In this document: piece by piece, positions 3,217 to 14,190 of the stretch | Layout of the letters: the number at the start of each line of letters is the position of its first letter | How positions within the stretch are numbered: position 1 is the stretch's first letter | NCBI GenBank assembly: GCA_000092065.1 | Contig: CP000601.1 | Direction: 5' to 3' (one strand) | DNA from: Ostreococcus lucimarinus | Lineage: Eukaryota | DNA: 64,000 nucleotides | The notes under the pieces: generated by a model | Told to the model about the DNA's origin: nothing | The model's database searches: none | The model's input: only the letters and a program-made list of their open reading frames with translations | Made by a program: the position numbers and the translations under genes

Positions 3217-4860
3217 ATGGACGAGGACGGCGCGGGAGGATTCGCGCGACGGAGTCGAAATATATTCGCCGACGCGCAGCGACGGCAGTGGTGCAGAGAG
3301 CGGCAGATCGGGGAGCGACGGGGAGGCGCGGCGAGCGCGAAGACGGGGGCGACGGCGCTGCGGTGCTCGAATAAGCGCTTCGTGGAGGAATTGAGGCTGA
3401 GGGAGACGCTGGAGAAGCACGGTGGGTGCGTGAATTGCGTGAGTTGGAACGACGATGCGTCGCTGTTGATCTCTGGGAGCGATGATATGACGGTGTGCGT
3501 GTGGGGGTGCGGGGCGAAGATGCCGCTGAAGGGGTCGGCGTTCACGGGGCACACGCACAACGTCTTCGCGAGCGAATTCGTGCCGCAATCGAACAGCGCG
3601 TACTGCGTCACGACGTCCGCGGATGGAGACGTGCGGTTGGTGGATTTAGAGCGTGGGTTTCGAGGGCCCGCGCCCGCGCATTACGGTTATCGCCTGCGCG
3701 GGGCGAATCAACCGAATTCCGAGTGCAGTCGCTCGCTCTGGCACGGTCGAGGCGCGGGGATGGGGTTCGGCATGACGTTCGTGCCGAACGAACCGAATAC
3801 GTTTTTGTCGTGCCATCAAGACGGTCGCGTTCGTTTGTTCGACTTGAGGCAAAGTCACGGTGGTTTCGAAGGAAACTCACACGAAATCGTCGTCGATTTG
3901 AGCGCGTGCGGGCCGACGTCGGAAATCGTGTTCGACCCGACGGCGCCTACGACGTTCGCCGCGTGCTCGGACGATCCTCACGTGCGCGTGTTTGATCTCA
4001 GACACGTCAAGAGTAACCGGCGAGAAGCGGCGCGCGAATGTCCAGCGGCACCGAGTCCGAGCACGTCGCCCACGGGTCAACCGATGTTTCTGAGATCGCC
4101 TCGGCCTTCGATGAATCACGACATTCCGTGCGTCATGATGCTCAGTCCGCTCGAGCTCGGTCGAGGCGTGCGAAGCCCGGGCTTTGAGGGTATATCTGGC
4201 CTGGCTTACTCGTCCAAGGGCGAACTCGCGATTAACTGCAAAGGCGACGACGTGTACCTGTTGGACACTCGCCGAGCGGCGGCGAATATCAATTCTGAGG
4301 AACGTATTTTTAAGTCGTTCTCCGTGCCGTGGGAAATGCCGATCACGCATCAGGCGGCGAAGAGGTACGTCGGACGCAGAAATGTGAAAACCTTCTTAAA
4401 GGGTGTCGCTTTTATGTGCGACGATGAGTACGTCACGACGGGTGGTGACGATGGCAACGTATACGTCTGGCACAAAGATACGTGCGAGCTCGTGTGCAAA
4501 ATGCAAGCAGACAGTCAGGTGGTGAACACCGTTTTGCCGCACCCGCACTTGCCGACCATCGTGTGCTGCGGTATAGACAATCACGTGCGCGTCTTCGAAG
4601 CTGGTGATGGTGGAGTGCATCTCGGCACCCCTCCCATGCGCGATGAACACGACGCTTGGGGATTTGACGAAGAAGATGACGAGGAAGAAGAAGATACGGA
4701 TGAAGACGATGAAGACGAAGCGAGCACCGATAGCGACGACGACCACCGCGGCGAAAATCTCGCGAGATGGTCTCGAGCGCTCGTCGATGCTGCGGATGCG
4801 CCAGAAGAGGATGACGACGATGATGCCGACTTTGAACCTGATTCGATGCGCGAAAACTAA
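3217..4860 (+). CDS. WD40-repeat protein, DCAF8/WDR42-like (DDB1-CUL4 associated factor-like) with acidic C-terminal tail
   Basis: Conserved block RFVEELRLRETLEKHGGCVNCVSWNDDASLLISGSDDMTVCVW...HTHNVFASEFVPQSN...CVTTSADGDVRLVDL resembles DCAF8. Multiple WD repeats, C-terminal poly-D/E. ORF opens at 2983 inside a microsatellite; likely start is ATG 3217 (or 3082). Confidence 0.65.
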   Translation: MDEDGAGGFARRSRNIFADAQRRQWCRERQIGERRGGAASAKTGATALRCSNKRFVEELRLRETLEKHGGCVNCVSWNDDASLLISGSDDMTVCVWGCGAKMPLKGSAFTGHTHNVFASEFVPQSNSAYCVTTSADGDVRLVDLERGFRGPAPAHYGYRLRGANQPNSECSRSLWHGRGAGMGFGMTFVPNEPNTFLSCHQDGRVRLFDLRQSHGGFEGNSHEIVVDLSACGPTSEIVFDPTAPTTFAACSDDPHVRVFDLRHVKSNRREAARECPAAPSPSTSPTGQPMFLRSPRPSMNHDIPCVMMLSPLELGRGVRSPGFEGISGLAYSSKGELAINCKGDDVYLLDTRRAAANINSEERIFKSFSVPWEMPITHQAAKRYVGRRNVKTFLKGVAFMCDDEYVTTGGDDGNVYVWHKDTCELVCKMQADSQVVNTVLPHPHLPTIVCCGIDNHVRVFEAGDGGVHLGTPPMRDEHDAWGFDEEDDEEEEDTDEDDEDEASTDSDDDHRGENLARWSRALVDAADAPEEDDDDDADFEPDSMREN

Positions 4861-11070: not shown

Positions 11071-12291
11071 CTACGTCAATCTAGCCTCGAACATGTTTGC
11101 ATAAAATCTCATCTGCGCAGGTCCGTCGTCTCGACACAAAACGCCTCGGCTTTCTGCCATGTAGAGGTACTCGAGCGCTATTTCGGGCGTCGTCGCTAAT
11201 ATTTGCGCCGCCTCGTACGAATCGATTGAATGCTCGTAAGACGGCAATCGCGCGAGCAATCGCGCGCACGCTTCCTCGTCTGTGCGTTCTACGGTATGAA
11301 TCACCATCACTCCGCTTTCAAATTTACGCAAGTGCAAATCGACCCCGAGCGACTCCCACGATTCGCTCGCGCGAAGCATGTCTTGCGGGGAAACTAACTC
11401 CGTGCCTCGCGCGCGATTGAACAAACAGAACGCATCGGTGACGGTAATGATGCCGTTCGATTTTTGCACCACGGGCGTTATCCAATCCGCTAATTGTTTA
11501 CCTAATTCTCGATGAAACTCTGCCCCCGCGTTCGCGCGCGTCACCGGACTCGTAATCCCGAGACTGAGCACGAGACGCTGAAGCTCTGAACTTTCCCCTT
11601 TCCCGTCCATCGACTCCGCGAGCCGCTCGGCGAGCGTCACCATCTCTCCAGCCTTCGCCATGAGCGCTCTGAGATCGGTAAACGCCTCGTCCATCGTCTT
11701 ATTCGTCGCCTCCGCGCGTTCGAGCTGTCGATTCACCGCGCCGCCGACGCCCGCCGTCGCCGCCGACGCGCCGCTCGCCCGCCGCCTCGCATCCTCCCGC
11801 GTCGTCTCCACCGCCGCCGTCGCTTTCTGTCTCTTATACTTTACGATCGCGTTCTCGATTTTCCCGCACACCTCCTCCGCGCTCGCCCCTCGCGCGCCGA
11901 TCGTCACCCGTCTCCCGCTCGTCAAAACCAGCGCCACCCCGCGCTCGCGCCTCCTGAACAACCCACCCAGCGTCGACCGCGACTCCTGCGCTCGTTCGCA
12001 CGCCGCCACGTCGTCGTACTCGATCACCGTCCCACCCTCGGCCGCGCTCCCCGCCGCCGCCGCCGTCGCCGTCGTCTCGAACGTCAAAATCAACCGTCGC
12101 GTCGTCGCCCGCGCGACCGCGTCTCGCCGCGCGCGCGCGCCGTCGTCCGCCACGACCACGCGCGCGCGCTCGACGAGCGCGATCTCGTCCCGCATGCGCG
12201 TCACGCCCCCGACGCCGTCTCCCGTCCCGTCGCGCGCGTCGACCGCGACGCCCGACGGACGACGCGCGTCGAGCGAAAAAGTCGTCCACAC
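11071..12291 (-). CDS. VPS36: ESCRT-II subunit VPS36 (EAP45-like)
   Basis: C-terminal winged-helix region VTDAFCLFNRARGTELVSPQDMLRASES...LEYLYMAESRGVLCRDDGPAQMRFYANMF matches VPS36. N-terminal GLUE-like region. Confidence 0.65.
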   Translation of the reverse strand: MWTTFSLDARRPSGVAVDARDGTGDGVGGVTRMRDEIALVERARVVVADDGARARRDAVARATTRRLILTFETTATAAAAGSAAEGGTVIEYDDVAACERAQESRSTLGGLFRRRERGVALVLTSGRRVTIGARGASAEEVCGKIENAIVKYKRQKATAAVETTREDARRRASGASAATAGVGGAVNRQLERAEATNKTMDEAFTDLRALMAKAGEMVTLAERLAESMDGKGESSELQRLVLSLGITSPVTRANAGAEFHRELGKQLADWITPVVQKSNGIITVTDAFCLFNRARGTELVSPQDMLRASESWESLGVDLHLRKFESGVMVIHTVERTDEEACARLLARLPSYEHSIDSYEAAQILATTPEIALEYLYMAESRGVLCRDDGPAQMRFYANMFEARLT

Positions 12292-12429
12292 GAGAAAAAA
12301 ACGATCAACTCAATGGTTCGCAAGTGGCCGTCGAACGCGATTTTATGGTCTCGGCGACCGACCGCGCCTTTGCCGACGACGAATTACGGGCGCGCGACGT
12401 CACTGGACGTCCCCGCGGGCGACGGCGCG

Positions 12430-14190
12430 ATGATGTCGCGCGCGTCCGTGGACGCGGTGCGCGGCGCGCGACTCGGCGCGCGACTCGGTGCGCTCGCGAT
12501 GCGGGCGAGAGCGACGCCGGGAGCGATCAAACACGCGCGGAGCGCGCGCGCGGTGGCGACGCGGGCGACGTACGGACGACCCGAGCGCATCGCGCGCGTG
12601 AAGGGAAACGACGGGGGGGCGTCGCGCGTGGGCGAGGCGTTGGAACTGCGAGGGTGGGCGCGATCGGTGCGGACGCAGAAGGGAATGGCGTTCATCGACC
12701 TGAACGATGGGAGCGCGATCTCGGGGATGCAAGCGGTGGTGAACGAGGGAAGCGCGGCGTGGGACGCGCTCGACGCGGGCGGCGTCTCCACGGGGGCGGC
12801 GCTCAGGGTGAAGGGGAAACTCGTGGCGAGTCCGGGAGGGAAGCAAGCGGCGGAATTGGCGGTGGAGGAGATTGATGTCATCGGAACGGCGGATCCGGAG
12901 ACGTATCCGCTGCAAAAGAAGCGACACACGCTGGAATATCTTCGAAGCATCGCGCACTTGCGACCTCGCACAAACACCATCGGCGCCGTGGCTCGCGTGC
13001 GCAATCAGTTGGCGTACGCGACGCACACGTTCTTTCAAGAGCATGGGTTTTTATACGCCAACACGCCGATCATCACCGCGTCGGATTGCGAAGGCGCTGG
13101 GGAACAGTTTCAAGTGACGACGCTGTTGAACGGCTTCGGCGCCGGCGAGTGGACGACGCCGGCCTCGGTCGTGGACGAGCAAGAAGCCATGGTGAAGGCA
13201 CAGGGTGACGCGGTGAAGGCCCTGAAGGAGGCGAAGAAAGCGGGAGACGCGACGAAAGAGCAAGTTGATGAGGCCGTGGCGAAGCTTTTAGATCTCAAGG
13301 CGAGCGTCGAGGCGCTGAAGAACAATCGCCCGTCGTCCGACTTGCCGAAGAATAAGGATGGTTCCATCGACTATTCTCAAGACTTCTTCGGCAAACCGTC
13401 TTATTTGACCGTGTCTGGGCAATTGAACGGTGAAATCATGGCTTGCGCGGTCAACGACATCTACACCTTCGGTCCGACGTTCCGCGCGGAGAATAGCAAC
13501 ACGTCGCGCCACCTGGCTGAGTTTTGGATGGTAGAGCCCGAACTCGCGTTCGCGGATTTGAACGACGACATGGATTGCGCAGAAGCGTACTTGAAGTATT
13601 GCCTGAACCACGTCCTCGAGCACTGCGACGAAGATCTTGAATTCTTCGAGAAGAACATCTCCAAAGACAACCTGAGAGAGCGACTTCGAAACGTCGCGTC
13701 GCAAGAGTTTGCGCGCATCACGTACACCGAAGCCGTCGAGCACGTGTTGAACGCGAAGAAGAAGTTTGAGTTCCCAATCGAATGGGGATCGGATCTTCAG
13801 AGCGAGCACGAGCGGTACATCTCAGAAGAAGTCTTCAAAGATCGCCCCGTGATCGTGCGCGATTATCCGAAAGATATCAAGGCGTTCTACATGCGTCTCA
13901 ACGACGACAACAAAACCGTCGCCGCAATGGACGTCTTGGTGCCCCGCGTTGGTGAGTTGATGGGTGGTAGCCAAAGAGAAGAACGCCTTGATGTCTTGGA
14001 GCGCCGAATCGAAGAGGTTGGTTTGGAAAAGGAGTCGTACTGGTGGTACTTAGATTTGAGACGATACGGTTCGCAGCCGCACGCCGGTTTCGGCCTCGGT
14101 TTTGAACGCCTCGTTCAGTACGTCACAGGTGTGGAGAACATTCGTGACGCCATTCCTTTCCCCCGTTACCCGGGTAGCGCTGAGTTCTAG
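12430..14190 (+). CDS. Asparaginyl-tRNA synthetase, organellar (bacterial-type class II) with N-terminal transit peptide and internal WHEP-like insertion
   Basis: Anticodon-binding OB fold (RVGEALELRGWARSVRTQKGMAFIDLNDGS), class II motifs (FFQEHGFLYANTPIITASDCEGAGEQF; YTFGPTFRAENSNTSRHLAEFWMVEPE; GGSQREERLDVLERRIE; GFGLGFERLVQY). ORF opens at 12313; likely start ATG 12430 (MMSRASVDAVRGARLGARLG... transit-peptide-like). Confidence 0.85.
   Translation: MMSRASVDAVRGARLGARLGALAMRARATPGAIKHARSARAVATRATYGRPERIARVKGNDGGASRVGEALELRGWARSVRTQKGMAFIDLNDGSAISGMQAVVNEGSAAWDALDAGGVSTGAALRVKGKLVASPGGKQAAELAVEEIDVIGTADPETYPLQKKRHTLEYLRSIAHLRPRTNTIGAVARVRNQLAYATHTFFQEHGFLYANTPIITASDCEGAGEQFQVTTLLNGFGAGEWTTPASVVDEQEAMVKAQGDAVKALKEAKKAGDATKEQVDEAVAKLLDLKASVEALKNNRPSSDLPKNKDGSIDYSQDFFGKPSYLTVSGQLNGEIMACAVNDIYTFGPTFRAENSNTSRHLAEFWMVEPELAFADLNDDMDCAEAYLKYCLNHVLEHCDEDLEFFEKNISKDNLRERLRNVASQEFARITYTEAVEHVLNAKKKFEFPIEWGSDLQSEHERYISEEVFKDRPVIVRDYPKDIKAFYMRLNDDNKTVAAMDVLVPRVGELMGGSQREERLDVLERRIEEVGLEKESYWWYLDLRRYGSQPHAGFGLGFERLVQYVTGVENIRDAIPFPRYPGSAEF

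Follow-up and report, generated by a model that had tools for sequence, protein, structure and literature searches.

An internal WHEP domain, missing from the public gene model, in an organellar-type asparaginyl-tRNA synthetase of Ostreococcus lucimarinus

WHEP domains are flexible auxiliary arms that contact RNA or protein in the aminoacyl-tRNA synthetases (aaRSs) EPRS, MetRS, HisRS, GlyRS and TrpRS. In the metazoan enzymes (solved domains: EPRS 1fyj, HisRS 1x59, TrpRS 1r6t, GlyRS 2pme, MetRS 2djv, as well as 1d2d/1r1b) they are appended to the N- or C-terminus or link one enzyme to another. Plant enzymes have WHEP domains too, both GlyRS and asparaginyl-tRNA synthetase (AsnRS): Saga et al. 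(2020; PMC7564348) described land-plant cytosolic AsnRS in which a WHEP interrupts the sequence between motifs 1 and 2, and reported the insert as plant-specific, confined to the cytosolic forms and absent from organellar SYNO. According to Peeters et al. (2000), as cited in that paper, the plant cytosolic AsnRS genes are themselves of organellar ancestry. A 2024 catalogue of aaRS domains does not have AsnRS among the WHEP-bearing families, and the internal-WHEP AsnRS architecture is thus already published but little known. Here we describe this architecture in the green alga Ostreococcus lucimarinus, in the AsnRS gene at 12430–14190 of a 64,000-nt stretch of contig CP000601.1 that was analysed as a whole and that we refer to as the window. 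The WHEP of the Ostreococcus enzyme is internal to the catalytic domain, the protein groups with organellar-type rather than with cytosolic green AsnRS, and the public gene model removes most of the domain as an intron.

The gene encodes a bacterial-type (endosymbiont-derived) class IIb AsnRS, an assignment based on its OB fold, its class II core with motifs 1–3, and the fact that AsnRS structures are the closest to it. The best match of the protein in the PDB is the bacterial AsnRS 6pqh (E = 2.7e-147), with the T. thermophilus AsnRS at 8.6e-82 and AspRS at 1e-46 or weaker; charging of tRNA-Asn with asparagine is predicted from orthology only. In the 6pqh alignment query residue 270 pairs with chain residue 187 and query residue 342 with chain residue 191, leaving ~70 extra residues in the query. 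When landmark spacing was compared among 150 cluster representatives drawn from a library of 1.84 billion proteins, the DCEGAGE loop and the LTVSGQL strand were found to be 96 residues apart here versus 12–30 in bacterial AsnRS. The insertion site lies between motif 1 and the FFGK..LTVSGQL strand; in the open reading frame (ORF) 12313..14190 (+) it is bracketed by TPIITASDCEGAGEQFQVTTLL (aa 251–272, nt 13063–13128) and FFGKPSYLTVSGQL (aa 358–371, nt 13384–13425), and it breaks the Pfam match to the class II D/K/N core (PF00152, 215 bits) into two stretches. The features of the locus are as follows; residue numbers, here and throughout, are counted on the 625-aa mechanical ORF, in which the gene proper starts at aa 40.

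12430–14190, plus strand: AsnRS coding sequence, complete and intron-less, 586 aa plus stop; its true start, ATG 12430, is M40 of the mechanical ORF
12313–14190, plus strand: mechanical ORF, 625-aa translation
12430–12570, plus strand: N-terminal presequence-like extension (aa 40–86), a predicted organellar targeting peptide
12646–12882, plus strand: OB-fold anticodon-binding domain (aa 112–190; PF01336, 40.2 bits, E = 3.3e-10)
13063–13128, plus strand: class II motif 1/DCEGAGE loop and FQVTTLL strand (aa 251–272), the N-terminal boundary of the insertion
13129–13350, plus strand: lineage-specific insertion (aa 273–346), consisting of linker, WHEP helix-turn-helix and linker
13186–13323, plus strand: WHEP-TRS domain core (aa 292–337), PF00458 above the gathering cut-off
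13192–13350, plus strand: in-frame GT..AG segment of 159 nt, an intron in the NCBI/JGI model, judged here to be exon
13378–14166, plus strand: rest of the class II catalytic core with motifs 2 and 3 (aa 356–618; PF00152)
12196–12429, plus strand: non-coding 5' region common to the divergent EAP30/Vps36 gene (minus strand), holding the spurious ATG 12313

The inserted segment belongs to the WHEP family. PF00458 matches aa 292–337 with 40.3 bits (E = 3.3e-10) in the whole protein and with 45.4 bits (E = 8e-12) in an isolated 100-aa fragment, as compared to a gathering cut-off of 32.5 bits. Searched alone against the PDB, the 85-aa insert returned at the top mostly human WHEP domains (HisRS 1x59, EPRS 1fyj, TrpRS 1r6t, MetRS 2djv) with marginal E-values. 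A profile built from 14 orthologous inserts matched 18 WHEP-containing chains with E-values from 2.2e-9 to 5.5e-5, in the order EPRS 1fyj (2.2e-9), 1d2d, MetRS 2djv, HisRS 1x59, TrpRS 1r6t and GlyRS 2pme (5.5e-5), the next match being at 0.026. The hallmarks QG-x-x-V-K-x-L-K and V-x-x-L-L-x-L-K vary little or not at all among 17 Mamiellophyceae sequences, the conserved WHEP positions being Q, G, V, K, K, L and K; in Ostreococcus the stretch VKAQGD...VEALK spans aa 294–336 (nt 13192–13320). AlphaFold2, in a full-length and in an insert-only run, predicts two long helices (aa 283–309 and 315–337) with block-mean pLDDT (the model's per-residue confidence) of ~80–92. When the isolated insert was compared with the PDB by Foldseek, MetRS and HisRS WHEP domains ranked 1, 2 and 5, with 2djv, 8yor_E and 1x59 among the best, and the HisRS WHEP 8yor_E superposed on the insert with a root-mean-square deviation of 0.7 Å over 44 columns; no E-value in this search was significant, the best being 0.47. 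The structural comparison, made on a predicted model, is consistent with a WHEP fold but adds no independent evidence.

Collectively, these results identify a genuine WHEP of ~46 aa (~70 aa with its linkers) in a surface hairpin that runs from the motif-1/DCEGAGE strand to the strand leading into motif 2. It is of the same family, and has the same predicted helix-turn-helix, as the metazoan domains listed above, from which it differs in its internal position and in a turn that is four residues longer (K-A-G-D-A-T-K, compared to K-A-P-K in the canonical WHEP). The insert is retained in 119 of the 120 closest homologues and is missing from bacterial, haptophyte, stramenopile, dinoflagellate and streptophyte SYNO AsnRS. 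An earlier note on this DNA, made from the letters alone, had proposed just such an insertion of about 70 residues after motif 1, absent from bacterial AsnRS, in a bacterial-type organellar enzyme, and had suggested a PF00458 search and a comparison with related algae and plants. The domain, its position and the enzyme type are all borne out, 'organellar' by the 47-residue basic extension and the 95% clade described below; core chlorophytes share the insert as well, while among plants the cytosolic SYNC proteins have it and organellar SYNO does not. The span 12900–13420 given there does contain the insertion but also takes in upstream core, the insertion proper being 13129–13350. Two further statements of the note, that WHEP is normally metazoan and that this is an unusual domain accretion, are overtaken by the plant enzymes and by the architecture published for plant AsnRS in 2020. 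The same loop of bacterial-type AsnRS is an insertion hotspot: in other lineages, unrelated inserts of ~47–178 aa occupy it in P0144, P0145, P0155, P0129, P0154 and the apicomplexan Babesia protein P0152.

The public record lacks the domain. A database search with the protein brought up a metagenomic sequence of 99% identity together with many orthologues from Ostreococcus, Micromonas and Bathycoccus-like algae. The NCBI entry 'predicted protein [Ostreococcus lucimarinus CCE9901]' (P0096, 448 aa) equals aa 125–293 plus aa 347–625 of the window translation, residue for residue: the NCBI/JGI model (12685–14190) begins at a Met in the interior of the OB fold, and it drops nt 13192–13350 (GTGAAG...CCGAAG). 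We compared this 159-nt segment (53 codons) with five orthologous genes, namely those of three other Ostreococcus lineages, a Bathycoccus-like gene and that of Micromonas commoda. The nonsynonymous-to-synonymous ratio (pN/pS) of the segment is 0.24–0.47, with synonymous sites saturated, and the differences fall 15/13/35 on the three codon positions; the catalytic core has a pN/pS of 0.05–0.15, and purifying selection is thus weaker on the WHEP segment than on the core. The frame is open throughout and every indel comprises whole codons. The splice dinucleotides are not conserved: in sister species the GT codon is replaced by GCA or GCC and the AG codon by AAA, ACG, ACC or CGC. The GC content of the segment, 0.60, is coding-like, and inspection of the segment found no pyrimidine tract and no CTGAC branch site. 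Both the M. commoda gene model and the ORF of a Micromonas-like MMETSP transcript keep the WHEP. The M. commoda orthologue has a single intron (114 nt, GTACG...CTGAC...CAG; L003 ~3278–3391, CP001327.1), located elsewhere in the gene: it falls precisely where the presequence gives way to the conserved mature N-terminus (between IK and GKD), a position reminiscent of the acquisition of a transit peptide by exon addition. On the strength of codon-level selection, non-conserved splice sites, the Micromonas model and the algal transcripts, we read 13192–13350 as a translated exon under purifying selection and the reference annotation as wrong. The earlier note had thought a retained intron unlikely; selection, splice-site and transcript evidence agree with it, although the public model asserts that very intron.

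The public model also misses the N-terminus. In the 99%-identical strain L011 the DNA is identical from the ATGATG at 12430 onward, while upstream of 12430 the two differ by frame-breaking indels of +17, +1 and +7 nt and ATG 12313 is not conserved; in the 99%-identical relative the N-terminus upstream of the shared start is read in another frame (P0001). The identity downstream and the frame-breaking indels upstream place the start of the coding sequence at 12430. The 47 residues that precede the conserved YGRPERIARVKG (aa 40–86) comprise 10 R+K, one D+E, 14 Ala and six Ser+Thr, and starting at M40, M41 or M63 leaves a basic, acid-free extension in every case. All of the Mamiellophyceae orthologues have an N-terminal extension, which is not conserved in sequence (pN/pS ~1–1.7), and comparable basic, acid-poor extensions of 60–100 aa are found in Ulva, Tetraselmis, Trebouxia and Botryococcus. 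Vitis SYNC1, judged by composition only, lacks such an extension, with one basic and five acidic residues. We infer that the extension is a presequence, predicted to direct import into chloroplasts and/or mitochondria. Inside it, at 12462–12493, lies a 12-nt tandem repeat (CGGCGCGCGACT, 2.7 copies) encoding GARLGARLGA, which suggests that the targeting peptide grows by replication slippage.

To which green paralogue does the protein belong? In a neighbour-joining (NJ) tree of 39 sequences (457 columns, insert left out, 300 bootstraps), the Mamiellophyceae group with the core-chlorophyte presequence type and streptophyte SYNO (Chara, Closterium, Cinchona) at 95% bootstrap; across the NJ trees, support for Mamiellophyceae with SYNO alone is 73–76%. 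The SYNC type, streptophyte and chlorophyte together, forms a separate clade at 100%, and Mamiellophyceae were never joined to it (0%, 0/300). An earlier NJ tree with one SYNC1 and two divergent SYNC2-like sequences had given 54% for the organellar-type clade and is superseded by the 39-sequence tree. With the moderate support that a distance method can give, the Ostreococcus protein is therefore assigned to the organellar-type green paralogue, the presequence clade that includes SYNO.

Both paralogues are found in other green algae. A search with P0123 retrieved core-chlorophyte AsnRS of Ulva, Tetraselmis, Botryococcus, Trebouxia and Tetradesmus with an insert of 93–103 aa at the same site; these presequence-type proteins share clade, insert and N-terminal extension with the Ostreococcus protein and are its true orthologues, but their inserts have drifted (WHEP at 22–28 bits or undetected). 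A search with P0135 retrieved a second green family, the SYNC type, with acidic, coiled-coil-like N-termini, in Chlamydomonas, Chlorella, Coccomyxa, Tetraselmis, Pedinophyceae, Tetradesmus and all land plants. Core chlorophytes thus have a separate SYNC-type paralogue, whereas none was seen for Mamiellophyceae among the matches listed. A single assembly of Tetradesmus obliquus encodes both types, OEZ86_002666 (P0314, presequence type) and OEZ86_008432 (P0357, SYNC type), with sub-threshold WHEP matches of 27.8 and 22.1 bits; OEZ86_002666 is annotated as 1040 aa, probably a fused gene model.

The comparison with land plants runs along the same lines. Arabidopsis SYNC1 and SYNC3 (At5g56680, At1g70980) have a bacterial-type core and a WHEP-derived helix-turn-helix of ~60 aa at a position identical to that in Ostreococcus, and Vitis SYNC1 (P0122) has the same architecture with a WHEP that scores 26.7 bits, below the cut-off, versus 40–45 bits in Ostreococcus. 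SYNC proteins lack a transit peptide, have an acidic N-terminus and form their own clade (100%), while the Ostreococcus protein has a presequence. Conversely, organellar SYNO (At4g17300) and its Chara and Closterium orthologues share with the Ostreococcus protein the clade and an N-terminal extension rich in Arg, Ser, Thr and Ala, but have no WHEP, with 36–39 residues between the landmarks in Chara and Cinchona. Two further groups of SYNC relatives came to light. In the SYNC2-like paralogues P0223 (Papaver nudicaule) and P0200, DSKGFSEKF and KSRAHGKMF replace DCEGAGExF, and LTVSSQL and LSTSAQL are found at the second landmark, which suggests that aminoacylation activity may have been lost while the insert at the WHEP site was kept. 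P0143, from a EukProt transcriptome of the choanoflagellate Diaphanoeca grandis, is a SYNC-like AsnRS with a plant-SYNC-like N-terminus and a 97-aa helical insert at the same site in which Pfam detects no WHEP; NJ bootstrap support for its grouping with SYNC is 65%, and it could stem from horizontal transfer from a green alga or from contamination.

The inserts of the two green clades are homologous. Aligned as profiles by hhalign, those of the SYNC clade and of the organellar-type clade match with a probability of 97.8% (E = 1.2e-12), both share a P-S/T-x-E-E/A-L cap before helix 1, and both profiles match solved WHEP domains. The WHEP would then have been inserted once, in a green-lineage ancestor and before the cytosolic/organellar duplication. 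Chlorophytes keep it in either paralogue, and its absence from streptophyte SYNO would be a later loss. On this most parsimonious history the insertion is probably ancestral to green plants.

Four other explanations have to be weighed, two of which concern the domain itself. Its WHEP likeness could be fortuitous, produced by an amphipathic helical hairpin rich in Lys, Ala and Glu, that is, a low-complexity coiled coil: the generic hairpins of MexA and ESCRT-I also appear among the Foldseek matches, which do not reach significance (best E-value 0.47), and Pfam reports a weak OEP match on the same stretch. The PF00458 score, however, exceeds a curated cut-off and is far beyond chance, the profile search yields WHEP domains only down to 5.5e-5 before jumping to 0.026, and both hallmarks (the first as QG-x-x-V-K/R-x-L-K) are kept across orthologues, so that we give chance resemblance practically no credence. 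It is also very improbable that the public model is right, with 13192–13350 spliced out as a GT..AG intron, or optionally as an 'exitron', and no WHEP in the mature enzyme. That P0096 equals the window ORF minus exactly aa 294–346, and that the segment has GT at its start, AG at its end and a length divisible by three, is what such an intron would look like; yet the highest-scoring stretch of a Pfam-significant WHEP domain is encoded there, and the segment is under purifying selection with a third-position bias and has its GT and AG codons replaced in sister species. Its GC content equals that of coding sequence, it has neither the pyrimidine tract nor the CTGAC that mark the real Micromonas intron, and the insert is retained in nearly all close homologues, in the curated M. 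commoda model and in transcriptome ORFs. The public model moreover begins only within the OB fold, a truncation that suggests prediction by homology to bacterial templates.

The other two concern the affinities of the protein and of its insert. The WHEP insert has been reported in land plants only for cytosolic forms (PMC7564348), and WHEP is otherwise a feature of cytosolic eukaryotic synthetases; the protein might on these grounds be a functionally cytosolic AsnRS, the equivalent of SYNC, with an extension that does not target and a separate WHEP-less organellar AsnRS elsewhere in the genome. We consider this unlikely: no bootstrap tree joins the protein to SYNC and 95% join it to SYNO and the presequence-type chlorophyte proteins, every possible start leaves an extension that is basic and acid-free rather than acidic and coiled-coil-like as in the SYNC type, and the only WHEP-less green-algal AsnRS among the 150 best cluster representatives are streptophyte SYNO. 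Independent acquisition of the cytosolic and organellar-type inserts, or copying between the paralogues by gene conversion, has a modest minority of the probability in our estimate. It would explain why streptophyte SYNO has no insert and why the insert-less haptophyte, stramenopile and dinoflagellate AsnRS branch between the two green clades, which are never sisters in the NJ trees; but a distance tree is unreliable at its deep nodes, both clades have the insertion at exactly the same residue (after QVTTLL, before (L/I)P..DG.(I/V)DY..DFF), and the shared cap and the profile–profile match link the two inserts.

Several observations nevertheless weigh against our interpretation as a whole. The trees are NJ trees built from simple distances with limited sampling, in which no sequence is labelled as red-algal, glaucophyte or cyanobacterial, and a count of shared derived sites gave SYNO versus SYNC affinity as 3 versus 1 informative sites, too few to decide. 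As no bootstrap tree makes sisters of the two green clades (0%), the single origin is argued from site identity and profile similarity and not from the tree. The N-terminal extension evolves neutrally in sequence, as transit peptides typically do, but so does junk. The WHEP segment is near charge-neutral (nine K+R, eight D+E) and less basic than classical RNA-binding WHEPs, and Saga et al. assign no role to the plant AsnRS WHEP. Finally, the full-length AlphaFold2 model, computed with the 17 Mamiellophyceae sequences, is poor (mean pLDDT 57, catalytic core below 50) and hence gives no usable placement of the WHEP with respect to the active site or the path of the tRNA.

Taking both sides into account, we hold with good confidence that the gene encodes a bacterial-type AsnRS with a presequence and a coding internal WHEP, that it belongs to the organellar-type clade and that its insert is homologous to that of SYNC. 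By analogy with other WHEP-bearing synthetases, the arm may form a flexible auxiliary surface beside the active-site entrance, where it could add non-specific tRNA affinity, for the capture or release of tRNA-Asn, or serve as a docking site for another protein. That an organelle-type enzyme keeps the domain would point to a part in aminoacylation itself, for instance in tRNA handling, and not to cytosol-specific moonlighting.

Does Ostreococcus have one AsnRS or two? A search with a SYNC-type query returned no Ostreococcus-, Micromonas- or Bathycoccus-named protein among the best 120 matches (down to 632 bits), which is weak evidence, while the same search did list Pedinophyceae, Tetraselmis and land plants. 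In the literature on the aaRS gene complement of Ostreococcus and green algae we found no statement on AsnRS copy number. That the gene described here is the only AsnRS and serves all three compartments is in our estimate almost as likely as not. It is conceivable, though we would put it somewhat below an even chance, that the WHEP is not cytosol-specific at all: it would have been present in the single organelle-derived AsnRS of the green ancestor and been kept by the chlorophyte organelle paralogue, which in the gene-poor Mamiellophyceae (Ostreococcus, Micromonas, Bathycoccus) would be the sole AsnRS and serve cytosol, chloroplast and mitochondrion. If so, the WHEP would work inside organelles on bacterial-type tRNAs, and its loss from streptophyte SYNO would be secondary. 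Marine metagenomes and SRA assemblies contain an abundant, intron-rich green-algal lineage (L007 1596–3901 and L009 5201–7452; also P0407/P0447) whose SYNC-type AsnRS has an intron in the OB fold and whose GC content is 0.57–0.585. The first-exon ORF of L007 has a basic stretch (MLCSKFASKF...RSNFRA) ahead of the cytosolic-type start MATNDIEAL, which hints at alternative initiation.

The gene lies in a conserved neighbourhood. Between 11071 and 15735 of the window the order is eIF-1A, EAP30 (Vps36-like, minus strand), AsnRS, a folylpolyglutamate-synthase-like Mur ligase (minus strand) and Staygreen, and this order is kept from eIF-1A to Staygreen across Ostreococcus lineages (L001, L004, L005, L011) and in part in a Bathycoccus-like contig. 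Over the whole 64,000-nt window ARAGORN detected no tRNA gene, and the Rfam scan gave nothing at or above a family's gathering score. Binned at 2 kb, the GC content ranges from 0.51 to 0.69, and short CG-rich tandem repeats are scattered throughout.

In this study we have described an internal WHEP in the AsnRS of O. lucimarinus. Since the architecture itself has been published for land plants, what is new is that the reference gene is mis-annotated and that a presequence-bearing, organellar-type clade carries the WHEP, and the value of the finding is modest and mostly corrective. Both the WHEP and the first 85 residues are missing from the reference O. lucimarinus protein (448 aa), which should be re-annotated as 586 aa. 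The rule that the AsnRS WHEP is 'cytosolic only' fails in chlorophytes, and the origin of the insertion would move back to before the green cytosolic/organellar duplication. O. tauri is transformable. If the Mamiellophyceae have a single AsnRS, they would offer a compact and tractable system both for the internal WHEP and for the question of how one synthetase serves three compartments.

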